This document shows, piece by piece, positions 1 to 31,960 of a stretch of DNA of 32,000 bases; positions within the stretch are counted from its first letter, which is position 1; every line of letters begins with the position of its first letter. Under the pieces are notes generated by a model that was given only the letters and a program-made list of their open reading frames with translations, was not told the origin of the DNA and ran no database searches. A program made the translations under genes and the position numbers. Location: the NCBI RefSeq assembly GCF_000023205.1, contig NC_012803.1:1560001-1592000 (forward strand), in the 5' to 3' direction. This DNA is from Micrococcus luteus NCTC 2665 (GTDB taxonomy: Bacteria > Actinomycetota > Actinomycetes > Actinomycetales > Micrococcaceae).

Positions 1-3369
<3,369 letters not shown>

Positions 3370-4766: not shown

Positions 4767-6036
<1,270 letters not shown>

Positions 6037-8190: not shown

Positions 8191-10479
8191 TCACTCCGGG
8201 ACGTCCGCCAGCCCGGCCGGCAGCGCGGCCGCGTCCGTCCCGGCGACGACGGACAGCGACTGGGTGGCGCGGGTCATCGCCACGTACAGATCGCCCACCA
8301 CGCCGCGTGCGTCGGCCACGATCCGCTCGGGAGAGACGAGGACGACGGTGTCGAACTCCAGTCCCTTGGTGTCCCACGGGGTGGCGACGACGATCTCGAC
8401 GCCGGGCAGCGGCGCGGTGTCCACGGCCGCCTCCCCCCACCGCTCGCGGAGGGCCGTGAGCAACTCCCCTGTCTGCCCGGCGGGGGCGATCACGGCGGTC
8501 AGGGCCTCGGGCACGCGGCCCCGCTCGACCTCGACCGCCTCGAGGGTCAGGGCCGCCACGTCACCGCCCGGCTCCGTCACCAGGCGCGGGCGGTGATCGC
8601 CCTCACGCACGGCGCGCGGATGGGAGACCTCAAGCCCGGCCGCCCGCGCGACCTGCGCGGCCCAGCGCATCACGCGCGCCGGCGAACGGTAGTTCACAGT
8701 CAACTCTTCCAGGCGCCAGCGGTCCCCGAACTCAGGGGCGAGGACGGACGCCCACGAGCCGGCCGCGTCGCGACGGGAGGACTGCGCGATGTCGCCCACG
8801 ATGGTGAACGACTTCATCGGGCAGCGGCGCGCCAGCAGGCGCCACTGCATCGGAGAGAGCTCCTGGGCCTCGTCAACCACCACGTGCCCGTACGTCCAGG
8901 TGCGGTCGTAGGCCGCGGTCTCGGCGGTGGTCCGTCGCACGCCGCGCGCCTCATTGGCCGCGGCCAGCTGCTCGGCGTCCACGACGCCGTCGACGCCCAG
9001 GTCCGCGAGCGTCTGGTGCATGTTCTCCAGGGACGCCCGGGCGTTCTCGAGGTTGCGCTCGTGCTGGGCCGCGGATTCACCGCCCCGGCCCGGGGTCTCG
9101 AGGCGTCCGAGCAGCTCGGCCGCCTCGTCCAGGAGGGGCACGTCGGCCTCGGTCCAGGGGGCGTCGGCCGGCCGCAGGAGCGCGCCGACCTCGGCGTCGG
9201 ACAGCCACGGGGCGGCCGCCCGGAGCAGGTCCTCCCGGGTGAGGAGGTCGCCGATCAGTTTCTCCGGCGTCAGCGGCATCCAGCAGAGGTTGAGCGCGAT
9301 GCGCACGTCGCGCGAGGTGCGCACGTCCTCGAGGAGGAGGTCACGCTGCACCGGGGTGCCCGAGGACTTCTCCAGTTTCTTGCGCAGCTTCTCCGCGAGC
9401 TCGCGGACGAGGATCTTCACGAACGTCACCCGGGCCTCGTTGTGGGGCTTTCGGGTGGCCCGCGCCTTGTCCCGGGCGCGCCGGACCATGGCCGGCTTGA
9501 GCTTGACGGCCGTGCCGTCGATCATCAGGCGCCGCGGCTCGACGAGCAGGCGCTGGCGCTGCGCGACCGCGTGGGCGACGGCGTCCACCATGTCCAGCCG
9601 GCCCTTCACCGCCGCCACGTCGAGGTCCCGCTCCGGGACGGCCCGTACGCCCGGCATCAGCGTCCCCAGCGAGGACATCACGACACCGGTCTCGCCCAGC
9701 GAGGGCAGCACCCGCTCGATGTACCGCATGAACGCGGTCGACGGACCGACGATCAGCACGCCCGAGCGCGCGAGGCGCTCCCGGTGGGTGTACAGCAGGT
9801 AGGCCGCGCGGTGCAGGGCGACGGCGGTCTTCCCCGTGCCGGGCCCGCCCTGGACCACGACCGCCCCGGACAGGGGCGCGCGGATCACCTCGTCCTGCTC
9901 CGCCTGGATCGTGGCGACGATGTCCCCCATCCGCCCCGTGCGTCGGGCGGTGACGGCGGCCAGCAGCGCACCCTGGCCATCGGCGCGCACCCCGTCCTCG
10001 CCCAGCAGCGTCGGGTCCAGGATGTCGTCCTCGAGGTCGCGCACCTCGCGCCCCCGCAGCATCAGGTGACGACGACGGCGCACACGGCCCCGGTGGGCCG
10101 CCGTCGCCTGGTAGAAGGCGCCGGCCTCGGCCGCGCGCCAGTCGACGAGGAGGCGCTCGTGGTCCTCGGTGGTGAGGCCGATGCGCCCGATGTACCGCTG
10201 CTCGTCGGCCCCACCCTCCTGCTCGGCGTCGAGGTCGAGCCGGCCGAAGACGAGGCGGTCGTCCACGGCGTAGAGCTGGGCGAGTCGGTCCTCGTAGAGG
10301 CTGGCGAAGGCGTCGCGCTCGGAGTGGTTCTGCAGCGACCCCTGCGGGCCGGTCCGGCGCACGGCCGCGAGCTGGCGCTCCTTCTCCTCACGCAGGGCGT
10401 CGAGGCGGGCGTACCGCTCGGCGACCCGACCCCGCTCGAGGTCGAGCTCGGACTGGCGGACGGACACGGTATCGGTCAT
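8191..10479 (-). CDS. helD: HelD-like UvrD/Rep-family helicase (helicase IV / RNA polymerase-associated ATPase)
   Basis: 762 aa from ATG 10479 (the track ORF extends to 10548). It has an N-terminal coiled-coil-like segment, RYIGRIGL...LVDWRAAEAGAFYQAT, Walker A GGPGTGKT, Walker B VVVDEAQEL and a C-terminal TKGLEFDTVVLV. Assignment to the HelD subfamily is from motif memory. Confidence 0.7.
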   Translation of the reverse strand: MTDTVSVRQSELDLERGRVAERYARLDALREEKERQLAAVRRTGPQGSLQNHSERDAFASLYEDRLAQLYAVDDRLVFGRLDLDAEQEGGADEQRYIGRIGLTTEDHERLLVDWRAAEAGAFYQATAAHRGRVRRRRHLMLRGREVRDLEDDILDPTLLGEDGVRADGQGALLAAVTARRTGRMGDIVATIQAEQDEVIRAPLSGAVVVQGGPGTGKTAVALHRAAYLLYTHRERLARSGVLIVGPSTAFMRYIERVLPSLGETGVVMSSLGTLMPGVRAVPERDLDVAAVKGRLDMVDAVAHAVAQRQRLLVEPRRLMIDGTAVKLKPAMVRRARDKARATRKPHNEARVTFVKILVRELAEKLRKKLEKSSGTPVQRDLLLEDVRTSRDVRIALNLCWMPLTPEKLIGDLLTREDLLRAAAPWLSDAEVGALLRPADAPWTEADVPLLDEAAELLGRLETPGRGGESAAQHERNLENARASLENMHQTLADLGVDGVVDAEQLAAANEARGVRRTTAETAAYDRTWTYGHVVVDEAQELSPMQWRLLARRCPMKSFTIVGDIAQSSRRDAAGSWASVLAPEFGDRWRLEELTVNYRSPARVMRWAAQVARAAGLEVSHPRAVREGDHRPRLVTEPGGDVAALTLEAVEVERGRVPEALTAVIAPAGQTGELLTALRERWGEAAVDTAPLPGVEIVVATPWDTKGLEFDTVVLVSPERIVADARGVVGDLYVAMTRATQSLSVVAGTDAAALPAGLADVPE

Positions 10480-10577
10480 CGGGGCCCTCGCGATGCGGTG
10501 AGGGGCGGACCACGCTGCGGCCCGCCCGGCGGAAAAGTGACCACCCATGCTACGCCGACCACGGTGGACGGCGGGTG

Positions 10578-10645: not shown

Positions 10646-13433
<2,788 letters not shown>

Positions 13434-13520
13434 GTCTTCTCCTCTTTATATAGGGGGCGTCTCCGAGCGCGGCACGTGGCCGTCGGAGGCGTGCTCGTGG
13501 CGATCCTACCCGGGTCTTGA

Positions 13521-13528: not shown

Positions 13529-14925
13529 GGCTCTCCTGACGCTTCCGTGGGTGTTCTGGCGAGCCGTTGACGAGGGCACGCCGCTCTCTGCCTAGGTTTC
13601 TGGCTGTTGAGGTCAGTTACCTGAAGGGCGGAGAACGGCGTGCGGAACGCAAGCCTATGGCGGTCCTTGCTGGGCGTCGAGAAGACGGTCGTGGAGGGCA
13701 TCGAGTTCGATGAGGACGACCAGCTCCTGGTGGCTCATGTCCGTCCCCGGGCTCGAGTGCGTGGCCGGTGCGGGCGGTGCGGGCGCAGGTCGCCCGGGTA
13801 CGACCGTGGCGAGGGTCGGCGGCGGTGGCGGGCGCTGGATCTGGGCACGGTGCAGGTCTACCTCGAGGCCGACGCCCCGCGGGTGGCCTGCCGCGAGCAC
13901 GGTCCCACGGTGGCCGCCGTCCCGTGGGCCAGGCACGGGGCCGGTCACACCGTGGTGTTCGACGAGCAGGTGGCCTGGCTGGCCACGCAGTGCTCCAAGT
14001 CCGCGGTCACCGAGCTGATGCGCATCGCCTGGCGCACCGTCGGGGCGATCATCACCCGGGTCTGGGCCGACGTGGAGGCCCTCGGCGACCGGTTCGCCGG
14101 CCTGCGACGGATCGGCATCGATGAGATCTCCTACAAGAAGGGCCACCGCTACCTCACGATCGTGGTCGACCACGACACCGGCCGGCTCGTCTGGGCCGCC
14201 CCGGGCCGGGACAAGGCGACCCTGGCGGCGTTCTTCGAGGCCCTCGGGCCCGACCGGTGCGCCGAGATCACCCACGTCAGCGCCGACGGGGCGGACTGGA
14301 TCGCCGCCGTGGTCGCCGAGCGGTGCCCGAACGCGGTGCGGTGCGCTGATCCGTTCCACATCGTCAAGTGGGCCACCGAGGCCCTGGACGAGGTCCGTCG
14401 CCAGGCGTGGAACGAGGCCCGTGGCGCGGTCCGGCAGCGCCGGGCCGGGCGGGCCGGCGGGCACGCCAAGGCGCTCAAGCACGCCCGGTACGCGCTGTGG
14501 AAGAACCCCGAGAACCTCACCACCCGGCAGCAGGCCAAGCTCGCCTGGGTCGCCAAGACCGACCCGCGCCTGCACCGGGCCTACCTGCTCAAGGAAGGAC
14601 TGCGCCTGGTCTTCCAGCTACCCGCCGACGAGGCCGAGACGGCCCTGGAACGCTGGATCGGCTGGGCCCGACGTTGCCGCATCCCCGCCTTCGTCGAGCT
14701 CCAACGCCGCATCGTCAAGCACAAGGCCTCGATCCTCGCCGCGATCGAGCACGGCCTGTCCAACGGACGTATCGAGTCCGTGAACACGAAGATTCGGCTC
14801 ATCACCCGCGTCGCCTTCGGCTTCAAGTCCCCCGAAGCCCTCATCGCCCTGGCCATGCTCAACCTCGGCGGCCACCGACCCGTCCTACCGGGCCGGAAAT
14901 GACCCACGGATCAGTCAGGAGAGCC
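13529..14925 (+). mobile_element. ISL3-family insertion sequence, copy 2 (1397 bp), in the argG upstream region
   Basis: Same length and ends as copy 1. Every six-frame ORF inside it translates identically to its counterpart in copy 1, and I saw no nucleotide difference by eye. It sits 95 bp upstream of the argG start. Confidence 0.9.
13640..14902 (+). CDS. ISL3-family DDE transposase (identical to 3481-4743)
   Basis: Its 420-aa product is identical to that of copy 1. Confidence 0.9.
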   Translation: MRNASLWRSLLGVEKTVVEGIEFDEDDQLLVAHVRPRARVRGRCGRCGRRSPGYDRGEGRRRWRALDLGTVQVYLEADAPRVACREHGPTVAAVPWARHGAGHTVVFDEQVAWLATQCSKSAVTELMRIAWRTVGAIITRVWADVEALGDRFAGLRRIGIDEISYKKGHRYLTIVVDHDTGRLVWAAPGRDKATLAAFFEALGPDRCAEITHVSADGADWIAAVVAERCPNAVRCADPFHIVKWATEALDEVRRQAWNEARGAVRQRRAGRAGGHAKALKHARYALWKNPENLTTRQQAKLAWVAKTDPRLHRAYLLKEGLRLVFQLPADEAETALERWIGWARRCRIPAFVELQRRIVKHKASILAAIEHGLSNGRIESVNTKIRLITRVAFGFKSPEALIALAMLNLGGHRPVLPGRK

Positions 14926-15366: not shown

Positions 15367-15460
15367 CTGCTGGGTCGTCTCGAACCGACGGAGGGCATGA
15401 CCCGACCAAGGAGAAGGACGACCCCGGTGTGCCTCGGCCGCCGATCAGCGAGGACTCGCC

Positions 15461-16132
15461 ATGGACACCATGACTCTCTTCACCACTTCCGCCACCCGCT
15501 CCCGCCGTGCCACCGCCTCGATCGTCGCGGGCATGACCCTCGCCGGCGCCGCCGCCGTGGGCTTCTCCGCCCCGGCCCAGGCCGCCACCGTGGACACCTG
15601 GGACCGCCTCGCCGAGTGCGAGTCCAACGGCACCTGGGACATCAACACCGGCAACGGCTTCTACGGCGGCGTGCAGTTCACCCTGTCCTCCTGGCAGGCC
15701 GTCGGCGGCGAAGGCTACCCGCACCAGGCCTCGAAGGCCGAGCAGATCAAGCGCGCCGAGATCCTCCAGGACCTGCAGGGCTGGGGCGCGTGGCCGCTGT
15801 GCTCGCAGAAGCTGGGCCTGACCCAGGCTGACGCGGACGCCGGTGACGTGGACGCCACCGAGGCCGCCCCGGTCGCCGTGGAGCGCACGGCCACCGTGCA
15901 GCGCCAGTCCGCCGCGGACGAGGCTGCCGCCGAGCAGGCCGCTGCCGCGGAGCAGGCCGTCGTCGCCGAGGCCGAGACCATCGTCGTCAAGTCCGGTGAC
16001 TCCCTCTGGACGCTCGCCAACGAGTACGAGGTGGAGGGTGGCTGGACCGCCCTCTACGAGGCCAACAAGGGCGCCGTCTCCGACGCCGCCGTGATCTACG
16101 TCGGCCAGGAGCTCGTCCTGCCGCAGGCCTGA
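15461..16132 (+). CDS. rpf: resuscitation-promoting factor: secreted Rpf (transglycosylase-like) domain, Ala/Glu-rich linker and C-terminal LysM domain
   Basis: 223 aa with GAGGA 7 nt upstream of the ATG. It has a signal peptide ending AQA|ATV and the Rpf-domain motifs WDRLAECESNGTW and GGVQFTLSSW. The LysM-like C-terminus reads VVKSGDSLWTLANEY...YVGQELVLP. From memory, the sequence matches the founding M. luteus Rpf. Confidence 0.95.
   Translation: MDTMTLFTTSATRSRRATASIVAGMTLAGAAAVGFSAPAQAATVDTWDRLAECESNGTWDINTGNGFYGGVQFTLSSWQAVGGEGYPHQASKAEQIKRAEILQDLQGWGAWPLCSQKLGLTQADADAGDVDATEAAPVAVERTATVQRQSAADEAAAEQAAAAEQAVVAEAETIVVKSGDSLWTLANEYEVEGGWTALYEANKGAVSDAAVIYVGQELVLPQA

Positions 16133-16734: not shown

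Positions 16735-16735
<1 letters not shown>
16247..16735 (-). CDS. argR: arginine repressor
   Basis: 162 aa from ATG 16735 (the track ORF extends to 17005). It has an N-terminal winged-helix region (SQAELSDAL...[10 protein letters not shown]) and the C-terminal [12 protein letters not shown] motif. Its ATG overlaps the argF TGA by 1 nt. Confidence 0.9.
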
Positions 16736-18973
<2,238 letters not shown>

Positions 18974-18977
<4 letters not shown>

Positions 18978-19960
18978 GCGTCCCCCTCGGGGGTGGTCGG
19001 GGCGGTGGGCTCAGCGTCGGGCACCACCTGGGTGCCGACGCCCGCGGAGGTGAAGACCTCCAGCAGCATCGAGTGGGGGCGGCGGCCGTCCACGACGTGG
19101 GCGCGCTGCACGCCGGCGTCGACGGCCGCCAGGCACGCGGCCATCTTCGGGATCATCCCGGAGGCCAGGGAGGGCAGCAGCGCACGCAGCTGGGCGGCGG
19201 TGAGCGAGCTGATGAGGGAGTCGCGGTCCGGCCAGTCGGCGTAGAGGCCTTCGACGTCGGTGAGCAGCACGAGCTTCGCGGCGCCGAGGGCGGCGGCCAG
19301 GGCCGCGGCGGCGGTGTCCGCATTGACGTTGAGGACCTGCCCGGTGGGCTCGCCGTCGTCGTCGATCTCGGGGGCGACCGACGAGACCACGGGGATCCGC
19401 CCGGACTCGATCACGTCGAGGATCGCGGTCGGGTCGACTCCGGTGACCTCTCCCACGAGGCCGAGGTCCACCTCCTGCCCGTCCACGACGGCGCCCGTGC
19501 GGCGGGCGCGCAGCAGCCCCGCGTCCTCGCCGGAGAAGCCGACGGCATACGGGCCGTGGGAGTTCACGAGGCCGACCAGCTCGCGGCCCACCTGTCCCGT
19601 GAGCACCATGCGGACCACGTCCATGGCCTCCTCGGTGGTCACGCGCAGGCCGCCGCGGAACTCGGACGCGATGCCGAGGCGGTCGAGCATCGCGTTGATC
19701 TGCGGGCCGCCGCCGTGCACCACCACGGGGTGGACCCCCACGTGGTGCAGGAACACGATGTCCTCGGCGAACGCCCGGCGCAGCTCCTCCGACACCATGG
19801 CGTTGCCGCCGTACTTGACGACCATGACGGTGCCGGCGAACCGCCGGATCCAGGGCAGGGCCTCGACGAGGACCTCCGCCTTGGACTCGGCGCGGTCGAG
19901 CCGGTCCGCGGTGGACAGGACGGGTGCGGCCGCCGTGGCCGGGTCGGTGTGCGGGCTCAT
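18974..19960 (-). CDS. argB: acetylglutamate kinase
   Basis: 328 aa from ATG 19960 (the track ORF extends to 20491). It has the VVKYGGNAM motif and lies 11 nt after the argJ stop. Confidence 0.9.
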
Positions 19961-19971
19961 GCTGGGGGTCC

Positions 19972-22178
<2,207 letters not shown>

Positions 22179-22184
22179 CTAGCG

Positions 22185-22210
22185 TAGATATGCGTTGCAC
22201 GGAATATCTA
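22185..22210 (-). promoter_or_regulatory. Candidate ArgR operator upstream of argC
   Basis: AT-rich inverted repeat TAGATAT-N12-ATATCTA, 16-41 nt upstream of the argC ATG in the divergent argC/qor spacer. Minus-strand reading is GATATTCCGTgcaacGCATAT, sharing 16 fixed positions with the site at 14926-14950. Confidence 0.5.
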
Positions 22211-22270
22211 TGCGGTACCTCGGGTCCCCGGGCCGGGCCGGATGTCCGGGCCCGCTCCTAGAGTGGGGCC

Positions 22271-23272
22271 ATGACCACTGCGAACACCCCCGCCGTCCCC
22301 CGCACCCACCACGCCGTCGTCGTGTCCGCCACGGGCGGCCCCGAGGTCCTGCAGTGGACCGAGACGGAGGTGCCCTCCCCCGCGCCGGGGCACGTGCTGG
22401 TGCGCACCGCCGCGGCGGGCCTGAACTTCATCGAGACGTACCAGCGCTCCGGGGTCTACGCGATGGACCTGCCCTTCACCCCCGGCACCGAGGGCTCCGG
22501 CGAGGTCGTCGCGCTCGGCGAGGGCGTGGACGCCGCGCTCCTGGGGGCCCGTGTCGCCACCGCGACGGCCACCGGTGCGTACGCCGAGCACTTCACCGCC
22601 CCCGCGGATCGTCTCCTCGCCGTCCCGGAGGGCGTCGACCTGGCCGAGGCCGCCGCCCTTCCGCTGCAGGGCATGACGGCCCACTACCTCTGCCGGTCCA
22701 CCTTCCCGGTGGAGGAGGGCCACACGGTGGTCGTGACGGCCGGTGCCGGCGGCGTGGGGCTCCTGCTCACCCAGCTCGCGACGGCCCGCGGCGCCCGCGT
22801 GATCACCACGGCGTCCACGGAGGAGAAGCGGGAGCTGTCCCGGGGCGCGGGCGCCGCCGCCGCGGTGGACTATCCGGACCTCGCCGCCACGGTGGCGGAG
22901 CTGACCGACGGCGAGGGCGCGCACGTCGTGTACGACGGCGTGGGGAAGGACACCTTCGACACCTCGCTCGAGGTGCTGCGCGTGCGCGGCACGCTCGTGC
23001 TCTTCGGCGGGGCCTCCGGGCAGGTGCCCCCCTTCGACCTGCAGCGGCTCAACGCGGCCGGCGCGCTGTACGTCACCCGGCCCTCGCTGGTGCACTACAC
23101 GCGCACGGGCGAGGAGACCCGCTGGCGTGGTGGAGAGGTGTTCGGGGCGTGGGCCTCCGGTGAGCTCGACGTACGGATCGGCGAGCGCTTCCCGCTGGCG
23201 GACGCGGCCGCCGCGCACGCCGCCCTGGAGTCCCGGTCGACGACGGGCAAGGTGCTGCTCACCCTGTCCTGA
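22271..23272 (+). CDS. qor: NADPH:quinone oxidoreductase (zinc-independent MDR superfamily)
   Basis: 333 aa. It has the GLNFIETYQRSGVY and PFTPGTEGSGEV pattern, the cofactor loop VTAGAGGVGLLL, and a C-terminal TTGKVLL. Confidence 0.85.
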   Translation: MTTANTPAVPRTHHAVVVSATGGPEVLQWTETEVPSPAPGHVLVRTAAAGLNFIETYQRSGVYAMDLPFTPGTEGSGEVVALGEGVDAALLGARVATATATGAYAEHFTAPADRLLAVPEGVDLAEAAALPLQGMTAHYLCRSTFPVEEGHTVVVTAGAGGVGLLLTQLATARGARVITTASTEEKRELSRGAGAAAAVDYPDLAATVAELTDGEGAHVVYDGVGKDTFDTSLEVLRVRGTLVLFGGASGQVPPFDLQRLNAAGALYVTRPSLVHYTRTGEETRWRGGEVFGAWASGELDVRIGERFPLADAAAAHAALESRSTTGKVLLTLS

Positions 23273-23299
23273 GCCGGACCCGCCCGGTGCCTTCCGGGC

Positions 23300-23323
23300 G
23301 CCCCGCGCGGCCGCGGGCGGGGC
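23300..23323 (+). terminator. GC hairpin after qor (possible terminator)
   Basis: GCCCCGC pairs with GCGGGGC, plus 2 further bp around a GCCG loop. There is no T tract. Confidence 0.3.
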
Positions 23324-23324
23324 A

Positions 23325-23330
23325 TAGAAT
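23325..23330 (+). promoter_or_regulatory. Possible -10 box TAGAAT for the pls-like gene
   Basis: This is the only AT-rich hexamer in the qor-pls spacer, 65 nt upstream of GTG 23395. I found no convincing -35 box. Confidence 0.25.
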
Positions 23331-23394
23331 GTTCCGCTGCGGCCTGGTCCGTGTCCGACCCTCGGTTCGCCGCTCACACCCCCCGGAGGCCCCT

Positions 23395-26300
23395 GTGTCC
23401 CTTTCGTCCGCCGCGCCCACCCCGCCCTCTGTCCCCCTCGACCCTGCGGGCGCACCGCATCGGCCGCAGCTGCCCGGCTCCGAGCGCACCCCGCCCGCCC
23501 GGACGCTCGTGGAGCTCTTCGACGCCACGGCGCGCGAGCACCCGGACGCGACCGCCCTGGACGACGGCGTCGAGCCGCTGACGTACGCGGAGCTGCGGGA
23601 GCGGGTCGACGAGACCGCCCGCCACCTGTGGGCCGCCGGCGTGCGGAAGGGAGACCGGGTCGGCGTGCGGATCGCCTCGGGCACGGCCGCGCTGTACGTC
23701 TCGATCCTCGGCGTGCTCGCCGCCGGCGCGGCCTACGTCCCCGTGGACGCGGACGATCCGGAGGAGCGCGCCCGTCTCGTGTTCGGCGAGGCGAAGGTGG
23801 CCGGCGTCCTCACCGACGAGCGGGTCTACGCCCCGCACCCCGAGCACACCGTGGACCCGGCCGCCGAGGCCCGCGCCCCCGGGCTCGAGGACGACGCGTG
23901 GATCATCTTCACCTCGGGCTCGACGGGCACCCCCAAGGGCGTGGCGGTGAGCCACCGCTCGGCCGCGGCCTTCGTGGACGCCGAGGCGCGGATCTTCCTG
24001 GCGGACGATCCGCTCGCCCCGGGCGACCGCGTGCTGGCGGGACTGTCCGTCGCGTTCGACGCCTCGTGCGAGGAGATGTGGCTCGCCTGGCGTCACGGTG
24101 CGTGCCTGGTCCCGGCCCCCCGCTCGCTCGTGCGCTCCGGCATGGACCTCGGCCCGTGGCTCGCCGAGCGGCGCATCACCGCCGTGTCCACCGTGCCGAC
24201 CCTCGCTGCGATGTGGCCCACCGAGGCCATGGACAACGTCCGGCTGCTGATCTTCGGCGGCGAGGCCTGCCCTCCCGAGCTCGCCGCGCGCCTGGCGGAG
24301 GACGGCCGCGAGGTCTGGAACACCTACGGCCCCACGGAGGCCACCGTCGTCGCGTGCGCGGCCCCGCTCACCGGTCTCGGCCCGGTCCGCATCGGCCTGC
24401 CCCTGGACGGCTGGGACCTGGCCGTCGTCGACCCGCAGACCACGCTGCCCGTGGCCGAGGGCGAGACGGGCGAGCTGATCATCGGCGGCGTCGGCCTGGC
24501 CCGCTACCTCGATCCGGCCAAGGACGCCGAGAAGTACGCCCCCATGCCCTCCCTCGGCTGGGAGCGCGCCTACCGCTCCGGCGACCTCGTGGTCTTCGAG
24601 CCGGAGGGCCTGCTGTTCGTCGGCCGCGCCGACGACCAGGTGAAGCTCGGCGGCCGGCGCATCGAGCTCGGCGAGGTGGACGCGGCCCTCCAGGCCCTGC
24701 CCGGCGTCCACGGCGGCGCCGCGGCCGTGCAGACCACCCCGGCGGGCCACCAGATCCTCGTCGGCTACCTCGTGCCCGCGGACCCCGAGGCCGGGCTCGA
24801 CCTGCACATGGCCCGCGAGCACCTCGCGGCGGAGCTGCCGGCCGCCCTCGTGCCCCGGCTGGCCGTCGTGGACGCCCTGCCCACGAAGACCTCCGGCAAG
24901 GTGGACCGCCACGCGCTGCCGTGGCCCCTGCCCGGCGCCGAGGTGGACGAGGACGCGCCCCAGCCGGACGAGGACACCGCCGACGGCTGGGTGCTGCGCC
25001 AGTGGGCGGACGTGCTCGGCGCGCCCCCCAAGGACGCCGACACCGACTTCTTCGAGGCCGGCGGCGGCTCGCTCGCCGCGGCCCAGCTCGTGGCCCGCCT
25101 GCGCCTGCGCCACCCGGCCGTGACCGTCCAGGACGTCTACCGCAACCCCACTGCCGGGGCCCTCGTGGCCGCCGTCGTGGGCGAGGACGGCCCCCGCGGC
25201 ATCGAGGTGCACGACCGGCACGTCGACCGCACCCGCCACCGCACCCAGTGGGTCCAGACCCTCGTGGGGCTGCCCGTGTTCGTCCTGCCCGCCCTGCGCC
25301 TGGGCGTGTGGACCGGCCTGGCCCTGAACCTGCTGACGCTCTCCGGGCTGGCGCCCGGGCTGCCCACCGTGCCGTGGTGGGTGCTGATCGTGGCCGGCCT
25401 GCTGGTGGTCACCGTGCCCGGCCGCATGCTGCTCACCGCCGCGACGGCCCGGCTGCTGCTGCGCGGCGTGAGCCCCGGGTCCTACCCGCGCGGCGGCCGC
25501 GTCCACCTGCGCCTGTGGCTCGCCCAGCAGATCAGCGACCTCGTGGACCCCTACTCGCTGGCCGGCGCCACGTGGGTGCCCGCCTACGCGCGACTGCTGG
25601 GCAACCGGATCGGCAAGGACGTGGACATGCACACCGTGCCACCGGTCACCGGCATGCTCACGGTCGAGGAGGGCGCCGCGATCGAGCCCGAGGTGGACCT
25701 GTCCGGCTACTGGGTCGACGGCGACGTCGTCCGGCTCGGCGAGGTGCGCATCGGCGCGGACGCCGTCGTGGGCGCCCGCTCCACGCTCCTGCCGGGCGCC
25801 CGGGTCGGCGCCGGGGCGCACGTCGAGGCCGGGTCCACCGTCGCCGGGTGGGTGCGCGGCGGCCAGCGCCACGCCGGCTCCCCCGCCGTCAAGGTGGGCA
25901 AGGTGAAGCCCCGCGGCCCCGCCGAGGCGCCGCGGGAGACCCCGGGCTGGCGCCTGATGGCGACCGTCCTCTCGACCCTCGTCTCCCTCCTGCCGCTCGT
26001 CTCCGCCGCCGCGGCGGCCGCGGTGGCCGCGTGGTCGCTGACCTGGTGGCCGCCGGCCCCGGAGGCGGGACCGCTGGCCGCCGTCGGGACCACCGCGGCG
26101 CGCCTGCTGGCCGCGAGCCCCCTGGTGGCCGGCGTGTGGTTCCTGACCCAGATGCTGCTCGTGCTCGTCACGGTGCGCCTGCTCGCGCTCGGCATCACGG
26201 AGGGGCACCACCCCGTGCGCTCCCGGGTCGGCTGGCAGGTGTGGGCCACCGAGCGCGTCCTCGACGCCGCCCGCGACCAGCTCTTCCCGATCTACGCCTC

Positions 26301-27402
26301 CCGCTTCACGCCGACGTGGCTGCGCCTGCTCGGCGCCGAGGTGGGCCGCGGCGTCGAGGCCTCCACCGTGGTGCTCGTGCCGAGCATGACCCGCGTGGGC
26401 GACGGCGCGTTCCTCGCCGACGACACGATGGTCTCCTCCTACTCCCTCGACGGCGGGTGGATGCACGTGGCCCCCGCGAAGGTCGGCAAGCGCTCGTTCG
26501 TGGGCAACTCCGGCATGGTGCCCGGTGGCCGCACGCTGCGCCGCGACTCGCTCGTGGCGGTGCTGTCCACCACCCCGGCCAAGACCAAGGCGGGCACGTC
26601 CTGGATGGGCTCCCCACCCGTGCGCCTGCGCCGCAACGAGGTCACCGCGGACGCCTCCCTCACCTACGACCCGCCGGCCCGGCTCAAGGCCGCCCGCACC
26701 GCCTGGGAGCTGCTGCGCGCGATCCCGGTGTGGCTGCACGTGGCCCTGTCCCTCGCCGTCGGCGCGACGCTGGCCGCCCTCATCGCGGTCGGCACGTGGG
26801 TGCTGGCCTTCGTCCTGGGCGGCGTCGTCCTGCTCGCGGCCGGCGCGGTCGCGGCGGGCCTGACCGTGCTCGCCAAGTGGGTCTTCGTGGGCCGGATCCG
26901 CGCGGGCGAGCACCCGCTGTGGTCCTCGTTCATCTGGCGCAACGAGGTCGCGGACACCTTCACCGAGTTCCTCGCCGCCCCGTGGTTCACCCGGGCCGCG
27001 GCCGGCACCCCCGCCCTGGTCTGGTTCCTGCGCGCGATGGGCGCCCGGATCGGCCACGGGGCCTGGGTCGAGTCGTACTGGCTGCCCGAGGCCGACCTCG
27101 TGGAGCTCGGCGACGGCGCCACCGTGAACCGCGGCTGCGTCGTCCAGACCCACCTGTTCCACGACCGCGTGATGTCCCTGGACGCCGTCGTCCTGGAGGA
27201 CGGCGCCACCCTCGGCCCCCACTCCGTGGTGCTGCCTGCCGCTCGCCTGGGCCGCGGCACCACCGTCGGCGCCGGGTCCCTCGTGATGCGCGGCGAGGAG
27301 CTGCCCGCCGGCACGTGGTGGCTCGGCAACCCGGTCTCCCCGTGGCGTCGTCCCGACGGCGACCCCGCCGCCGCGACCACCCCCTCCCGAGAGGAAGCAT
27401 GA
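23395..27402 (+). CDS. Pls-type membrane-embedded single-module NRPS (homopoly(amino acid) synthetase-like): A-T-TM1/2-C1-TM3/4-C2-TM5/6-C3
   Basis: 1335 aa from GTG 23395, with GGAGG at 23385-23389 (the track ORF starts at 23287). Adenylation motifs are IIFTSGSTGTPKG, FDAS, NTYGPTE, YRSGDL, GRADDQVKLGGRRIELGEV and TSGKVDR. The carrier motif is FFEAGGGSLAAAQL. Three paralogous ~140-aa soluble domains follow, each preceded by two long hydrophobic stretches. There is no HHxxxDG condensation motif and no thioesterase motif. Confidence 0.88.
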   Translation: MSLSSAAPTPPSVPLDPAGAPHRPQLPGSERTPPARTLVELFDATAREHPDATALDDGVEPLTYAELRERVDETARHLWAAGVRKGDRVGVRIASGTAALYVSILGVLAAGAAYVPVDADDPEERARLVFGEAKVAGVLTDERVYAPHPEHTVDPAAEARAPGLEDDAWIIFTSGSTGTPKGVAVSHRSAAAFVDAEARIFLADDPLAPGDRVLAGLSVAFDASCEEMWLAWRHGACLVPAPRSLVRSGMDLGPWLAERRITAVSTVPTLAAMWPTEAMDNVRLLIFGGEACPPELAARLAEDGREVWNTYGPTEATVVACAAPLTGLGPVRIGLPLDGWDLAVVDPQTTLPVAEGETGELIIGGVGLARYLDPAKDAEKYAPMPSLGWERAYRSGDLVVFEPEGLLFVGRADDQVKLGGRRIELGEVDAALQALPGVHGGAAAVQTTPAGHQILVGYLVPADPEAGLDLHMAREHLAAELPAALVPRLAVVDALPTKTSGKVDRHALPWPLPGAEVDEDAPQPDEDTADGWVLRQWADVLGAPPKDADTDFFEAGGGSLAAAQLVARLRLRHPAVTVQDVYRNPTAGALVAAVVGEDGPRGIEVHDRHVDRTRHRTQWVQTLVGLPVFVLPALRLGVWTGLALNLLTLSGLAPGLPTVPWWVLIVAGLLVVTVPGRMLLTAATARLLLRGVSPGSYPRGGRVHLRLWLAQQISDLVDPYSLAGATWVPAYARLLGNRIGKDVDMHTVPPVTGMLTVEEGAAIEPEVDLSGYWVDGDVVRLGEVRIGADAVVGARSTLLPGARVGAGAHVEAGSTVAGWVRGGQRHAGSPAVKVGKVKPRGPAEAPRETPGWRLMATVLSTLVSLLPLVSAAAAAAVAAWSLTWWPPAPEAGPLAAVGTTAARLLAASPLVAGVWFLTQMLLVLVTVRLLALGITEGHHPVRSRVGWQVWATERVLDAARDQLFPIYASRFTPTWLRLLGAEVGRGVEASTVVLVPSMTRVGDGAFLADDTMVSSYSLDGGWMHVAPAKVGKRSFVGNSGMVPGGRTLRRDSLVAVLSTTPAKTKAGTSWMGSPPVRLRRNEVTADASLTYDPPARLKAARTAWELLRAIPVWLHVALSLAVGATLAALIAVGTWVLAFVLGGVVLLAAGAVAAGLTVLAKWVFVGRIRAGEHPLWSSFIWRNEVADTFTEFLAAPWFTRAAAGTPALVWFLRAMGARIGHGAWVESYWLPEADLVELGDGATVNRGCVVQTHLFHDRVMSLDAVVLEDGATLGPHSVVLPAARLGRGTTVGAGSLVMRGEELPAGTWWLGNPVSPWRRPDGDPAAATTPSREEA
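23500..24921 (+). other. Adenylation domain of the pls-like synthetase
   Basis: Core motifs A3 through A10 occur in order (aa 72-545 of the track protein). Confidence 0.85.
24973..25182 (+). other. Thiolation (PCP) domain; phosphopantetheine Ser at 25069-25071
   Basis: DFFEAGGGSLAAAQLVARLR. The Ser of GGGS is the expected attachment site. Confidence 0.85.
25489..25911 (+). other. C-terminal tandem domain C1 (left-handed beta-helix / acetyltransferase-like)
   Basis: WVPAYARLLGNRIGKDV, followed by hexapeptide-like repeats (VRIGADAVVGARSTLLPGARVGAGAHVEAGSTV). Confidence 0.7.
26224..26634 (+). other. C-terminal tandem domain C2
   Basis: TPTWLRLLGAEVGRGV, followed by hexapeptide-like repeats (VGDGAFLADDT..VGKRSFVGNSGMVPGG). 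It is paralogous to C1 and C3. Confidence 0.7.
26899..27345 (+). other. C-terminal tandem domain C3
   Basis: ALVWFLRAMGARIGHGAW, followed by hexapeptide-like repeats (LGDGATVNRGCVV..LEDGATLGPHSVVLPAARLGRGTTVGAGSLV). Confidence 0.7.
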
Positions 27403-28739
27403 GCACCGATCCCTACGTCCCGGGCGTCGGCACCGACGCCGCCACCGTCGAGCACATCGCGCTGGACCTCGACGTGCGCCTGGCCGCGAACCGGGTCTCC
27501 GGCACCGCCGTCCTGCGCGTGCGCCTGGCGAAGCAGAGCCGCCGCATCGAACTGGACCTGCACCGGCTGCGCGTCTCCCGGGTGGCCGCCGTCGTCGACG
27601 GCCGCGCCATCGCCTCCTCGTTCACCCAGCCGGGCCGCGCCCCGAGTCGCCTCGTCGTCGACCTGGGCGAGAGCCTGCCGGAGGGCACGCTCGTGGAGCT
27701 CACCGTGGTCTACGCGGGCACGCCCACGCTGCGGCGCAGCCCGTGGGGCACGATCGGCTGGGAGGAGCTCACGGACGGCGTGCTCGTGGCCGGGCAGCCC
27801 CACGGCGCCTCCACGTGGCTGCCGTGCGTGGACTCCCCCACCTCACGCTCGACGGCGGAGATCACCCTCACCTGCGATGCGGGCTACCTGCCCGTCGCCA
27901 ACGGCGTGGGCGCACCCGTGCGCACGCGCGGCTCGCGGGTCACGTGGCGGTGGCGGCTCGACCAGCCCGTGCCCGCCTACCTGCTCAGCGTGCAGATCGG
28001 CCGCTACCGGCTCGTGGACGCCGCCCCTCCCGCCGAGGGCCTGCCGGCGCTGCGCCTCGTGGTCTCCCCGCGGACCGAGCAGCGGGCCCGCCGGGCCCTC
28101 GCCCCCCAGCCGGCCATGATGGCCACGTTCATCGACGCCTACGGGCCGTACCCGTTCGAGGACTACACCGCGGTCGTGGCCGACGAGGAGCTCGAGATCC
28201 CGCTCGAGGCCGCGGGCATGTCCCTGTTCGGCACCAACCACCTGGACGGCTCGTGGGAGTCCGAGCGGCTGATCGCCCACGAGATGTCCCACCAGTGGTT
28301 CGGCAACGCCGTGACCCTGGGCCGCTGGTCCGACCTGTGGCTGCACGAGGGCTTCGCCTGCTGGTCCGAGTGGCTGTGGGCCGAGGCCTCGGGGCGGTCC
28401 AGCATCACCTCGATGGCGCGGCGGGCCTGGCAGAAGCTGGCCGCGCACCCGGTGGAGCAGGCGCTGGCCGAGCCCGGGCCGGAGGAGATGTTCGAGGACT
28501 GGGTGTACAAGCGCGGCGCGCTCACCGTGGAGGCGCTGCGGCAGCTGCTCGGCGCGGACCTCTTCGGCTCCATGCTGCGCGCCTGGGTGCGGGAGCACCG
28601 GTTCGGCACCGTCGACTCCCTGGGGCTGCGCACGCACGTGCACGCGTGGGCCCCGCACGCCGGGGTGAGCCGGGCACAGGTGGACGAGCTCTTCGACGCG
28701 TGGACGCTGCGGCCCGCCCTGCCGCCGTTCCCGGGCTGA
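27399..28739 (+). CDS. short M1-family zinc metallopeptidase (446 aa)
   Basis: Its ATG overlaps the pls-like TGA (ATGA). It has HEMSH-X18-E (28278-28349, within HEMSHQWFGNAVTLGRWSDLWLHEGFA) and the catalytic-Tyr context WVYKRG. AGMSL stands where GxMEN is expected. There is no N-terminal signal or TM segment, and the large C-terminal domain of aminopeptidase N is absent. Confidence 0.85.
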   Translation: MSTDPYVPGVGTDAATVEHIALDLDVRLAANRVSGTAVLRVRLAKQSRRIELDLHRLRVSRVAAVVDGRAIASSFTQPGRAPSRLVVDLGESLPEGTLVELTVVYAGTPTLRRSPWGTIGWEELTDGVLVAGQPHGASTWLPCVDSPTSRSTAEITLTCDAGYLPVANGVGAPVRTRGSRVTWRWRLDQPVPAYLLSVQIGRYRLVDAAPPAEGLPALRLVVSPRTEQRARRALAPQPAMMATFIDAYGPYPFEDYTAVVADEELEIPLEAAGMSLFGTNHLDGSWESERLIAHEMSHQWFGNAVTLGRWSDLWLHEGFACWSEWLWAEASGRSSITSMARRAWQKLAAHPVEQALAEPGPEEMFEDWVYKRGALTVEALRQLLGADLFGSMLRAWVREHRFGTVDSLGLRTHVHAWAPHAGVSRAQVDELFDAWTLRPALPPFPG

Positions 28740-28757
28740 CGCGGCCGCGCGGTCGAC

Positions 28758-29378
28758 TCAGCGGCCCCGCAGCGCCAGCGCCCCGACGAGACCGCCCGGC
28801 AGCCGGTCGGTGAGGTCCACCAGCACGACGTCGGCCGGCACGGTCAGCGCGTCGACGGCGGCGGGGTCGCCGGTGAAGCCGGTGCCGACGGCCTTCACGA
28901 GCGCCTCCTTGCGCGTCCACAGCCGGGCCCGCGCGGCGGGCCTCTCGGGGCCGGGAAGCTCCCGCACCCGGGCGCGCTCCGCCGTCGAGAAGCCCACCCC
29001 GCCCAGGCCGTCCTCGTCCGCGAAGGCCGCGGCGTCCGCCCGCTCGACGTCCACCCCGAGGCCGAGCCCGTCGGCGGGCCGTGCCGGCGCCCACCACGCC
29101 CCGATCCGTGCCCGGTCCTCGGCGCCGGGCATCCGGACGTGCGTGAACGAGACGAGGGCGACCCGGCCGGGGGGCAGGCCGGTCAGCGCGGGGGCGCCGT
29201 GCGCGGCCGAGCCGCAGCCCGCGCAGGCGTGCCGGAGCCCGAGCGGCCCCACCGGCACGCCCCAGGCCGCCGTCAGGGCGGTGCGCACCTGACCGAGCAG
29301 CGCGGAGACGGCGTCGGCCGCCCCCGCCGAGGCGGGGACGGCCGATGTCAGGCCCCACGGGCCGGTCGCGGCGGACAC
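28758..29378 (-). CDS. Sfp-type 4'-phosphopantetheinyl transferase
   Basis: 206 aa from GTG 29378, which is 2 nt after the pheT TGA. These are the last 206 codons of the 998-aa track ORF. Motifs are GVDVE (29043-29057), WTRKEALVKA (28890-28919) and CAGCGSAAHGAP (the HGxP region). Confidence 0.75.
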   Translation of the reverse strand: MSAATGPWGLTSAVPASAGAADAVSALLGQVRTALTAAWGVPVGPLGLRHACAGCGSAAHGAPALTGLPPGRVALVSFTHVRMPGAEDRARIGAWWAPARPADGLGLGVDVERADAAAFADEDGLGGVGFSTAERARVRELPGPERPAARARLWTRKEALVKAVGTGFTGDPAAVDALTVPADVVLVDLTDRLPGGLVGALALRGR

Positions 29379-29380
29379 GG

Positions 29381-31960
29381 TCAGCGCTGGACCGCCCCGT
29401 GCCGCTGCGCCGCGAGCGCGGTGGCCGCGGCGCGGGCCTCGGAGACCTCCTCCGCGGTGAGCGTGCGGTCGGGGGCGCGGAAGCGCAGGGAGAACGCGAG
29501 GGACTTCCGCCCCTCCGGCACGCCCGCGCCCCGGTAGACGTCGAACAGCTCGACGGCCTCGAGCAGCTCCCCGGCGCCCTCGGCGAGGGTCGCGCGCACG
29601 TCCCCGGCCACGACGGCCTCGTCCACCACGAGCGCCACGTCCTGCGTGCTCACGGGGAACGTGGACAGCGGTGCGGCGACCACGATCTCGGCGGCCGCGG
29701 CGCACAGCGCGTCCAGGTCCAGCTCCCACACGCTCGTGCGGGCGGGCAGGTCCTCGGCCTCGAGCCACTGCGGGTGCAGCTCGCCGGCCACGCCCACCAC
29801 CCGGTCCCCGTGCTCGGTCACGACGACGAGCTCGGCCACCCGGCCCGGGTGGAACGCGTGGTGCCGGCCCTGCCGGACGGTCAGCTCGACGCCGAGGACG
29901 TCGGCCACGTCGAGGGCTCCGGCGACCGCGTCCTGCCAGTCCACCGGGCGGGGGTCGTGGTCCGGCCCGGGCGCCGAGTCGTGCCCGGCGTACAGACCGG
30001 CCACGTGCCACGGCTGGGCAGGGATGCCGGCCTCGAGGTCGGCCAGGACCTCGGCGGAGGGGTGGACCGCGCGCGGCGGGATCGTCGCCGAGCCCAGCTG
30101 CGCGCCGGGCAGGAAGACCAGCCCCATCTCGTACAGCGCCAGATCGCGGAAGCCGCGTCCGAGGTTGCGGCGCGCGGTCTCGACGAGGCCCGGCAGCAGC
30201 GACAGACGCAGGTGCCGGTACTGGGAGGCGATCGGATTGGCCAGGGCCACCATCGCCAGGGCCTGGCCCTGCGCGTCCGAGTCCGCCCCGAAACGCCGGT
30301 TCTGCTCTTCGGAGACGAACGGGTAGGCGAGCACCTCGGTGAGACCTGCGGCCGCGAGCGCGGCCGACACGCGGCGACGCTGGGCCTGGCGGCGGGTGAA
30401 GCCGCGGCCCGGCGGGGCCACGGGCACCACGGAGGGGATCGCGTCGTAGCCGCGCAGGCGCGCGACCTCCTCGGCGAGGTCCTCGGGGATGCGCAGGTCG
30501 GTGCGCCACGACGGGGCGGTCACGGTCAGCCGCGGGGCGGCGCCGTCGGCGGCCTCGGTGACCCTCACCTCGGCGCCCAGGGCCCGCAGCGTCTCCACGA
30601 CCTCGTCGGTCGTGTACGCCACACCCACCAGGGCGGAGGGGAAGTCGGCGGCCATCTCGACGACGGCCGGCTCCGGCCGCGTCCCGACGTCGGTGACCCC
30701 GGGCTCGGCGGTGCCGCCGGCGAGCTCGACGAGCAGCTGGACGGCCCGCTCGGCCGCCTCGTCGGCGACCTCCCAGTCGACGCCGCGCTCGTTGCGCTTC
30801 GACGCCTCCGAGGGCAGGCGGTGTCGGCGCCGCGTTCGCGCGATCGACACGGGGTCGAAGTTCGCGGACTCGACCACGATCGTGGTGGTGGCGTCCGTGA
30901 CCTCGGTGGCGGCCCCGCCCATGACGCCCGCGAGGCCGATGGGGCCGGAGTCGTCCGCGATGAGCAGGTCCTCGGGGTCGAGCTCGCGCTCCTTGCCGTC
31001 GAGGGTGGTCAGGGTCTCTCCGGCCCGCGCGCGGCGCACCACGATCTCGCCGGAGAGCGTGTCCGCGTCGTAGAAGTGCAGGGGCTGGCCCAGCTCCCAC
31101 ATCACGTAGTTGGAGATGTCCACCGGCAGGGAGATGGTGCGGATGCCGGCCAGGCGCAGGCGCGCGGCCAGCCACGGCGGGGTCGGACGGGTCGCGTCCA
31201 CGCCGGAGACCGTGCGGGCCACGAAGCGGGTGGCCCCGGGCTCGCCGTGGATCGGCGCGTCGTCGGCGATCCGGACGGCCGGGCCGGCGTCGTCGGCCGC
31301 GGGCGGGTGGATGGCCGCGGCCGGGTCCGTGAAGGGCACGCCGGTGGCGTGCGCGTACTCGCGTGCGACGCCGCGCATCGAGAACGCGTAGCCGCGGTCG
31401 GGCGTCACGTTGATCTCGGCGGCCTCGCCGTGCAGGTCCAGGACGTCCCGGGCGTCGGTGCCCGGCTCGGGGTCGAGCCCGAGGTCGCCGAGCACGATGA
31501 TCCCGTCCGTGCCGTCGTCGCCCATGCCCAGCTCCGTGCTGGAGGCGATCATGCCGGCCGAGACGTGGCCGTAGGTCTTGCGGGGGCTGATGCGGAAGTC
31601 GCCGGGCAGCACCGCGCCGGGCAGGGTCACGACGACCTTGTCCCCGACCTCGAAGTTGTGGGCGCCGCACACGATGCCCTGCACGCCGGAGGGCTCGATG
31701 CCCTCGCCGGTGAGCGGCTGCTCGGCGCCCTCGGGCACCACCCGCACGGAGCACCAGTTGATGGTCTTGCCGTTCTTCTGCGGCTCGGGCTCCTTGGAGA
31801 GCACCTGCCCGACGACGATCGGGCCCTGCAGCTCGGCGGCCGGACGGTGGACGTCCTCCTCCTCGAGGCCGACGCGGACGAGGTCGGCCATCACGTCCTC
31901 GGCACGGTGCTCCGCGGGCACGGGGACGAACTCCCGCAGCCAGTCCAGGGGGATGCGCAT
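29381..31960 (-). CDS. pheT: phenylalanine--tRNA ligase beta subunit
   Basis: 859 aa. N-terminal MRIPLDWLREF, a tRNA-binding (OB) domain, B3/4 and B5 regions, and a C-terminal ferredoxin-fold anticodon-binding domain (KSLAFSLRFRAPDRTLT). Confidence 0.95.
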   Translation of the reverse strand: MRIPLDWLREFVPVPAEHRAEDVMADLVRVGLEEEDVHRPAAELQGPIVVGQVLSKEPEPQKNGKTINWCSVRVVPEGAEQPLTGEGIEPSGVQGIVCGAHNFEVGDKVVVTLPGAVLPGDFRISPRKTYGHVSAGMIASSTELGMGDDGTDGIIVLGDLGLDPEPGTDARDVLDLHGEAAEINVTPDRGYAFSMRGVAREYAHATGVPFTDPAAAIHPPAADDAGPAVRIADDAPIHGEPGATRFVARTVSGVDATRPTPPWLAARLRLAGIRTISLPVDISNYVMWELGQPLHFYDADTLSGEIVVRRARAGETLTTLDGKERELDPEDLLIADDSGPIGLAGVMGGAATEVTDATTTIVVESANFDPVSIARTRRRHRLPSEASKRNERGVDWEVADEAAERAVQLLVELAGGTAEPGVTDVGTRPEPAVVEMAADFPSALVGVAYTTDEVVETLRALGAEVRVTEAADGAAPRLTVTAPSWRTDLRIPEDLAEEVARLRGYDAIPSVVPVAPPGRGFTRRQAQRRRVSAALAAAGLTEVLAYPFVSEEQNRRFGADSDAQGQALAMVALANPIASQYRHLRLSLLPGLVETARRNLGRGFRDLALYEMGLVFLPGAQLGSATIPPRAVHPSAEVLADLEAGIPAQPWHVAGLYAGHDSAPGPDHDPRPVDWQDAVAGALDVADVLGVELTVRQGRHHAFHPGRVAELVVVTEHGDRVVGVAGELHPQWLEAEDLPARTSVWELDLDALCAAAAEIVVAAPLSTFPVSTQDVALVVDEAVVAGDVRATLAEGAGELLEAVELFDVYRGAGVPEGRKSLAFSLRFRAPDRTLTAEEVSEARAAATALAAQRHGAVQR

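Follow-up and report, generated by a model that had tools for sequence, protein, structure and literature searches.

Candidate ε-poly-L-lysine locus of Micrococcus luteus

The stretch of DNA analysed here, referred to throughout as the window, comprises 32,000 nucleotides of the chromosome of Micrococcus luteus NCTC 2665 (RefSeq assembly GCF_000023205.1, contig NC_012803.1, positions 1,560,001 to 1,592,000 of the forward strand), and all coordinates below are those of the window. It includes a candidate ε-poly-L-lysine (ε-PL) locus of three genes, which were confirmed at the coordinates listed in Table 1. The first open reading frame (ORF1) encodes a protein of 1335 aa made up of an adenylation domain (A), a thiolation domain (T) and three successive units, each consisting of a pair of transmembrane (TM) segments followed by a soluble domain (C1, C2 and C3). 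ORF2 encodes an M1 family peptidase of 446 aa, and ORF3, which is convergent, a 4'-phosphopantetheinyl transferase (PPTase) of 206 aa. The same three genes are called by public gene callers on many M. luteus contigs.

The GTG start codon of ORF1 at 23395 is preceded by GGAGG approximately 6 nt upstream, and the GC content at third codon positions is 0.98. The stop codon of ORF1 (27400–27402) overlaps the ATG of ORF2 (27399) in the sequence ATGA, and the stop codons of ORF2 and ORF3 are separated by 18 nt. At the protein level, ORF2 and M. luteus ACS30940.1 are 100 % identical. The protein cluster that includes ORF1 has 539 members, and among the 40 that were read the named ones were nearly all from M. 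luteus and labelled 'Pls/PosA family non-ribosomal peptide synthetase'. One RefSeq entry, WP_100069079.1 (M. luteus), begins at Leu26 of ORF1 (position 23470 rather than 23395) and is 1310 aa long; the 1335 aa form is annotated in most cluster members. A scan of positions 22100–29500 for promoters and terminators found none, as is to be expected at a GC content of 76 %.

Table 1. Features of the M. luteus pls locus and the genes that flank it
Feature	Position	Strand	Basis
Zinc-type alcohol dehydrogenase/quinone oxidoreductase (context, outside the module), 122 nt upstream of pls	22271..23272	+	Pfam ADH_N, ADH_zinc_N
ORF1, pls orthologue, ε-poly-L-lysine synthetase-type single-module non-ribosomal peptide synthetase, 1335 aa	23395..27402	+	GTG start, GGAGG ribosome-binding site; TIGR02353; alignment with Streptomyces Pls
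Adenylation domain, residues 1–515	23395..24939	+	PDB 7wew_A match, E 4e-195; specificity code; 66 % identity to Streptomyces Pls
Thiolation (peptidyl carrier protein) domain, residues 532–594	24988..25176	+	PF00550 at 48.8 bits
TM1–TM2 hairpin, residues ~620–683	25252..25443	+	Hydropathy; AlphaFold2 helices 15–50 and 61–88 of the model (residues 615–650, 661–688)
C1 soluble domain, residues ~684–852, left-handed beta-helix/hexapeptide type	25444..25950	+	Pfam Hexapep 784–818; paralogy to C2, E 1e-13
TM3–TM4 hairpin, residues ~853–935	25951..26199	+	Hydropathy; AlphaFold2 helices (residues 850–884, 893–931)
C2 soluble domain, residues ~936–1105	26200..26709	+	Paralogy to C1 and C3
TM5–TM6 hairpin, residues ~1106–1166	26710..26892	+	Hydropathy; AlphaFold2 helices (residues 1095–1132, 1135–1164)
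C3 soluble domain, residues ~1167–1335, and stop codon	26893..27402	+	Weak PDB matches to hexapeptide acyltransferases/gamma-carbonic anhydrases, mostly here
ORF2, PldII-type two-domain M1 zinc peptidase, 446 aa	27399..28739	+	Pfam M1_N and M1
ORF3, Sfp-type 4'-phosphopantetheinyl transferase, 206 aa	28758..29378	-	PF01648; GTG start
pheT, phenylalanyl-tRNA synthetase beta chain (context only), directly upstream of the PPTase gene	29381..31960	-	Pfam B3_4, B5, tRNA_synthFbeta, FDX-ACB

Domain structure of the synthetase

Only three Pfam families were detected in ORF1, namely AMP-binding (residues 42–370), PP-binding (532–594) and Hexapep (784–818). ORF1 has the core motifs of adenylation domains; its carrier motif, FFEAGGGSL, begins at residue 552 and identifies S559 as the serine to which phosphopantetheine is attached. 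Condensation and Thioesterase domains were not found by Pfam, and a search for the HHxxxDG motif was also negative. Of the NCBIfam models, TIGR01733 is matched at 340.8 bits (against 317.4) and TIGR02353, the model of the Pls/PosA family, whose cutoff is 423.1, at 670.6 bits, with residues 620–1314 corresponding to profile positions 2–695 of 695.

Kyte–Doolittle hydropathy revealed six hydrophobic segments arranged as three pairs (620–644/652–683, 853–883/904–935 and 1106–1130/1133–1166). The assignment of these as TM segments combines hydropathy with an AlphaFold2 model of residues 601–1335 (built with 24 homologues; predicted template modelling score 0.82), in which three helical hairpins lie at the hydropathy positions and each is followed by helices and a beta-rich domain. 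C1, C2 and C3 are mutually paralogous, sharing 27–29 % pairwise identity (E 1e-13 to 3e-5). When the polymerisation domain was compared with the PDB by sequence and by fold, only weak matches were obtained, all of them to left-handed beta-helix acyltransferases and gamma-carbonic anhydrases, and no solved structure of this domain turned up in the search.

Specificity code and relationship to known Pls enzymes

The A domain matches that of Streptomyces albulus Pls, for which there is a crystal structure (PDB 7wew). The ten Stachelhaus positions, which were set by register with conserved motifs and then by alignment, read DAESIGTVVK (D222, A223, E226, S265, I286, G288, T310, V318, V319 and K502). 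This is also the code of S. albulus Pls (BAG68864), for which the nearest call is 'lys' (supplementary table of Jiang et al. 2021, PMC8117764), whereas the code of the ornithine enzyme PosA is DMEHNGTVSK (PMC10522769), that of the beta-lysine enzyme is DGESISVVNK, and the enzymes for 2,3-diaminopropionate (Dap) and 2,4-diaminobutyrate (Dab) have Phe at position 2. As the ORF1 and S. albulus Pls codes are identical, the substrate can be named as L-lysine, and the predicted product of ORF1 is ε-PL.

When the 7wew sequence was used to scan the genome collection, 80 actinobacterial loci were obtained, and S. albulus was absent among them. Hence, the closest of these, the Pls of Streptomyces sp. 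MspMP-M5 (locus L006), was used as the comparator; its A domain and 7wew share 92 % identity. ORF1 is 53 % identical to the Streptomyces sp. MspMP-M5 Pls over 1311 aa, compared with the approximately 30 % identity reported between Pls-type and other synthetases of the family (PMC8117764). Identity is highest in the A domain (66 %), followed by C3 (56 %), C2 (50 %) and C1 (44 %), and is 30–36 % in the linker, T and TM regions.

The A-T-TM2-C1-TM2-C2-TM2-C3 layout, with neither a condensation nor a thioesterase domain, is common to ORF1, S. albulus Pls (BAG68864; 7wew) and the proven orthologue from Corynebacterium variabile. The S. albulus and M. luteus loci also share, besides the code, a downstream peptidase gene that overlaps pls by 4 nt; they differ in chromosomal setting, the location between argC and pheT being specific to the Micrococcaceae. 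PosA, the delta-poly-L-ornithine synthetase of Acinetobacter baumannii, has in common with ORF1 the NCBIfam family and the C-terminal polymerisation domain, which in PosA was modelled as three packed beta-helices and six membrane helices (PMC10522769), as in our model of ORF1. It differs in its code and substrate, and posA has no obvious cotranscribed neighbours (PMC10522769).

The initial annotation of this DNA had described a 1335 aa ORF with an A domain, a carrier motif and three paralogous domains separated by hydrophobic pairs, had noted that condensation and thioesterase domains were lacking, and had reported the ATGA overlap with an M1 zinc peptidase gene and the 18 nt gap to a convergent PPTase gene. 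All of this is correct, and its assignment of ORF1 to the Pls type agrees with the TIGR02353 match. It had also proposed alignment of C1–C3 with the tandem domains of Pls and prediction of six helices as checks; the three domains do align with those of the Streptomyces sp. MspMP-M5 enzyme, and the six helices found by hydropathy coincide with the AlphaFold2 hairpins.

Homologues of pls in three Kocuria loci (L032, L045 and L046) are 50–51 % identical to ORF1, have the code DAESIGTVIK, and are found without a downstream M1 peptidase gene or a nearby PPTase gene. They seem to represent a distinct branch of the family inside the Micrococcaceae.

The coupled M1 peptidase

ORF2 has the M1 gluzincin fold, with the domains Peptidase_M1_N (43.6 bits) and Peptidase_M1 (92.6 bits) and a zinc site of the form HEMSH-X18-E (residues 294–317). 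A homologue of ORF2 on the same strand lies directly 3' of pls in 73 of 85 loci, and HEXXH-X18-E is present in all 73; two of the 12 loci without a downstream peptidase gene are on contigs that end too early to show one. ORF2 is 36 % identical over 418 aa to the product of the gene downstream of pls in L006. For the peptidases of L006–L008, the three loci of the S. albulus type, identity to ORF2 is 36–38 %. In L006 the pls and peptidase genes also overlap by 4 nt (GTGA), analogous to ATGA in M. luteus. In S. albulus, pldII is translationally coupled to pls and its product is located outside the membrane (PMC9223678), and degradation of ε-PL by PldII, an endo-type metallopeptidase, is stated in the literature. 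PldII and ORF2 are alike in belonging to the M1 family, in the HEXXH-X18-E site, and in the placing of their genes immediately 3' of pls with coupled translation. The initial annotation had mentioned a pldII gene following pls in S. albulus, and the literature (PMC9223678) and the locus counts are in agreement with that. Together, these features support the identification of ORF2 as a conserved and translationally coupled partner of pls that is putatively of the PldII type.

The best solved relative of ORF2 is PDB 6a8z, a 474 aa 'zinc metalloprotease' (E 3.5e-38, aligned over residues 4–445). The chain in 6a8z and 6iff ('zinc metalloprotease, putative', 474 aa) has the same short two-domain format as ORF2, both lacking the large C-terminal domain that aminopeptidase N has. 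It differs from ORF2 in having approximately 40 extra residues at the N-terminus, and it is not known to be linked to a polymer synthetase. We also considered whether loss of the exopeptidase Glu of the GXMEN motif could be the cause of endo-type action, and this idea was dropped as the conserved segment P-x-E-A-Q-G-(M/L/I)-S-I-F probably retains the Glu.

The N-terminal regions of the peptidases were examined by inspection. Those from L006–L008 open with a leader resembling twin-arginine translocation (Tat) signals, (T/S)RRAL(L/I)RGAAL...PLA, whereas no signal peptide was seen at the N-terminus of ORF2, which opens directly at the catalytic fold, and the in-frame sequence 5' of its ATG is Arg-rich out-of-frame noise. 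The peptidases of most other loci likewise have short hydrophilic N-termini with no leader, and the Tat-like leader was seen only in L006–L008. Because a signal peptide is missing, the M. luteus peptidase is most likely cytoplasmic and most likely acts inside the cell. It would then be on the same side of the membrane as all of the soluble domains of the synthetase, as the number of membrane helices is even.

The linked phosphopantetheinyl transferase

PF01648 is matched by residues 106–180 of the 206 aa of ORF3 at 48 bits (cutoff 25). ORF3 includes the motifs CxxCGxxxHGxP (CAGCGSAAHGAP), VSFTH, GVDVE and WTRKEALVK, which we take to mark the Sfp type, and it matches the NCBIfam models HetI and TIGR00556 only below their cutoffs. 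Its GTG start codon is 2 nt beyond the stop codon of pheT; hence, it is probably transcribed with pheT (and with pheS, as in relatives) rather than from a promoter of its own.

A homology search with the PPTase yielded 28 matches, mostly from Micrococcus. Using an iterative profile search, PPTase homologues were found within approximately 2 kb of pls or the peptidase gene in nine other loci, all from the Micrococcaceae (Micrococcus, Citricoccus, Neomicrococcus, Sinomonas, Specibacter, Zafaria, Arthrobacter sp. C2, Pseudarthrobacter and Paenarthrobacter). Overall, pls, the peptidase gene and the PPTase gene occur together in 10 of 14 Micrococcaceae loci, compared with none of 71 loci from other taxa. 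No PPTase gene was detected in the Arthrobacter globiformis locus, the three Kocuria loci or any of the 71 loci from outside the family by profile and generic motif searches, both of which are of limited sensitivity. In four loci (L028, L043, L064 and L078), the PPTase gene is linked though pheT is not in the locus. Its orientation relative to pls is convergent, divergent or co-directional (in L064 it is co-directional and directly follows the peptidase gene), and its other neighbours in these pheT-less loci vary (polyphosphate kinase 2 (PPK2), ATP-grasp, Asp23, ABC transporter). This distribution supports the view that the PPTase is a putative linked component of the pls locus within the Micrococcaceae.

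A gene for PPK2 adjoins the PPTase gene beside pls and the peptidase gene in Neomicrococcus aestuarii (L004, 16035–16940) and Specibacter sp. (L028, 16808–18001). This neighbour is curious because the polymerisation consumes much ATP. ATP regeneration based on polyphosphate kinase has reportedly been engineered to raise ε-PL titres.

Chromosomal setting

The gene order in the window is argH, argG, argF, argD, argJ and argC on the reverse strand, the alcohol dehydrogenase gene, pls and the peptidase gene on the forward strand, and the PPTase gene and pheT on the reverse strand. The gap between argD and argJ is where relatives have argB; argR was not located in the window. The starts of the arg genes are approximate, as neighbouring stop-to-stop reading frames overlap heavily owing to the high GC content.

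The block made up of argC, the alcohol dehydrogenase gene, pls, the M1 peptidase gene, in some cases the PPTase gene, pheT and pheS recurs in Micrococcus sp. FDAARGOS_333, Citricoccus, Sinomonas, Neomicrococcus and A. globiformis, and in Zafaria the order matches as far as pheT. Given this recurrence across the family, the block looks old and vertically inherited in the Micrococcaceae. The alcohol dehydrogenase gene was considered as a possible part of the module and rejected; it lies beside argC in L043 and is absent in L028 and L064, where pls, the peptidase gene and the PPTase gene remain together.

Interpretation of the locus and alternatives

Very probably, the locus is the M. luteus orthologue of the ε-PL system pls-pldII, with the Sfp-type PPTase of this bacterial family encoded alongside. 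In the pathway that we envisage, the PPTase would convert Ser559 of the carrier domain to the phosphopantetheinyl form, and the A domain, which shares its code with characterised Pls enzymes, would activate L-lysine with ATP and load it as a thioester. The beta-helix domains C1–C3, anchored at the cytoplasmic face by the three TM hairpins, would then pass the lysyl group repeatedly to free lysine or to the growing free chain, each time at the epsilon-amino group, with neither a condensation nor a thioesterase domain taking part; this mechanism is established for S. albulus Pls and is carried to M. luteus by homology. Finally, the coupled M1 peptidase would be a PldII-type polymer hydrolase that is most likely intracellular, and it could clear or recycle cytoplasmic polymer. 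The initial annotation had proposed a self-contained set of producer, degrading peptidase and carrier-activating enzyme; the conserved, coupled peptidase is upheld, and the link to the PPTase is upheld by comparative genomics within the Micrococcaceae only. In a heterologous host, Streptomyces coelicolor, the C. variabile pls orthologue directs synthesis of ε-PL of 26–35 residues (PMC8117764).

Several observations weigh against this interpretation. Just as the initial annotation had stated, no report of polymer production by any Micrococcus was found in the literature searched. Neither polymer nor Pls protein was detectable in native C. variabile (PMC8117764), and by the same token the M. luteus locus may be silent under laboratory conditions. 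Sensitivity to ε-PL is listed for M. luteus (minimum inhibitory concentration 4 µg/ml) and for A. globiformis (8 µg/ml), which fits awkwardly with a constitutive producer shielded by its peptidase. The cytoplasmic placing of the peptidase is a prediction from the missing signal sequence. In addition, the PPTase gene is apparently co-transcribed with pheT, and neither the A. globiformis locus nor the three Kocuria loci have it, so that the enzyme may be a general rather than a dedicated PPTase.

The role of the PPTase can also be read in another way, namely as that of a general Sfp-type enzyme belonging to the pheS-pheT operon, with its adjacency to pls reflecting synteny and not function. The spacing of 2 nt from pheT, the convergent orientation, which places ORF3 outside the pls operon, and the A. 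globiformis locus, where pls and the peptidase gene are next to pheT with no PPTase gene between, are all in keeping with this possibility. We nevertheless regard it as somewhat unlikely, since in L028, L043, L064 and L078 the PPTase gene is beside pls or the peptidase gene where pheT is not, and the remaining neighbours vary.

That a different cationic homopolymer is made, be it delta-poly-ornithine, poly-Dab, poly-Dap or poly-beta-lysine, appears very improbable. Enzymes with those specificities do belong to the Pls/PosA family, and the location of the locus between argC-argJ-argB-argD-argF and pheT, an arginine/ornithine neighbourhood, would hint at ornithine. However, proven Pls enzymes have this same lysine code, which differs from those of PosA, the beta-lysine enzyme and the Dap/Dab enzymes, and in overall identity ORF1 groups with Pls. 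The arg/pheT setting is synteny common to the whole family, and pls, the peptidase gene and the PPTase gene also occur together outside it. An ornithine polymer deduced from the arg neighbourhood was thus rejected on the basis of both the code and the occurrence of the module away from arg genes.

A further question is whether the polymer is an exported antibiotic in the Micrococcaceae at all. Polymerase and intracellular hydrolase could instead form a vertically inherited physiological pair, making cell-associated or transient polylysine for storage, envelope charge or stress, or the locus could be essentially silent; we consider this rather unlikely. In the broader version of this proposal, which we regard as equally unlikely, pls and the M1 peptidase gene would constitute a vertically inherited synthesis and intracellular-hydrolysis pair in the Micrococcaceae, with a PPTase of its own there, rather than a secreted antibiotic coupled to self-protection outside the cell. 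Beyond the S. albulus group, this would apparently hold for most actinobacteria. Conservation of the block in Micrococcus, Citricoccus, Sinomonas, Neomicrococcus, Arthrobacter and Zafaria is consistent with this, as is the intactness of the gene across the 539-member M. luteus cluster (40 members read). So too are a peptidase without a signal peptide in M. luteus and most other loci (set against the Tat-like leader in only three S. albulus-type loci), the sensitivity of the hosts to external ε-PL, and the lack of native expression of pls in C. variabile. On the other hand, ORF1 is closely homologous to synthetases that make a secreted product, and the absence of a signal peptide is negative evidence obtained by simple inspection. 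Were the proposal true, polylysine would have a physiological, cell-associated or turnover role, loosely like that served by cyanophycin synthetase and cyanophycinase.

Other features of the window

From position 8000 onward, the GC content of the window is approximately 75 %, and that of the first 7 kb is 55–65 % because rRNA genes are located there. The 23S rRNA gene is at 1–2670 and the 16S rRNA gene at 3121–6035 (reverse strand; Rfam SSU matches 4623–6035 and 3121–3445).

Two 1397 bp insertion sequences (IS) of the ISL3 family, 100 % identical to one another, are at 3370–4766 and 13529–14925. Each has a 426 aa reading frame (420 aa ORF) with the Pfam domain DDE_Tnp_ISL3, a helix-turn-helix and a zinc ribbon. 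The terminal inverted repeats open with GGCTCTCCTGAC, and the copies are flanked by 8 bp target duplications, CTTTTTGG and ATAAATAT, one per copy. As each copy has its own target duplication, they represent separate insertions and not a single composite transposon. The first copy lies in the 16S rRNA gene, which is split near position 1270, and its flanks on the rRNA strand are AATCCCAAAAAG [IS] CCAAAAAGCCGG. Either this rRNA operon is truly disrupted or the split gene is an effect of the assembly.

The row of arginine genes is itself split into argH-argG (10646–13445) and argF-argC (16735–22169), both on the reverse strand. Between argG and argF are the second IS copy and, between that copy and argF, a gene (15401–16132, forward strand) encoding a protein with a transglycosylase-like domain and LysM, the domain arrangement of Rpf, the resuscitation-promoting factor of M. 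luteus. A 785 aa protein with helicase signatures of the UvrD/AAA_19 type is encoded at 8191–10548 (reverse strand), between tyrS (6816–8159) and argH.

Significance

Though the initial annotation implied that a Pls-type system in Micrococcus would be new, the M. luteus gene has been noted before. Pls homologues were described from Micrococcus, Arthrobacter and other coryneforms by Jiang et al. 2021 (PMC8117764), who predicted lysine as the substrate from the code and noted the shared operon with the peptidase gene; their dataset lists M. luteus WP_100069079.1, which corresponds to ORF1 from Leu26. The gene product is named by NCBI, and antiSMASH regions of the non-alpha poly-amino acid (NAPAA) type appear in the genome announcements of M. 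luteus O220 and Micrococcus sp. HOU01, the table column for the O220 entry being assigned by its likeness to the HOU01 list. The cluster is not mentioned in the M. luteus comparative-genomics literature that was searched. The M. luteus pls locus is thus an already catalogued member of a well-understood family. Because the family, the mechanism, the peptidase partner and the presence in M. luteus have all been published and are annotated automatically, it is an ordinary feature that carries little weight as a discovery. The additions made here are modest: a PPTase linkage specific to the Micrococcaceae, an M. luteus peptidase without a signal, and an argC-pheT block that is found in several genera.

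M. luteus, a common bacterium of skin and air, is sensitive to ε-PL and serves as a classic indicator strain. That skin and food isolates have the pathway for a preservative approved for use in food is of some applied interest, as argued by Jiang et al. 2021 (PMC8117764). For the family, the signal-less peptidase leaves a modest chance that polylysine metabolism in the Micrococcaceae departs from the Streptomyces paradigm.

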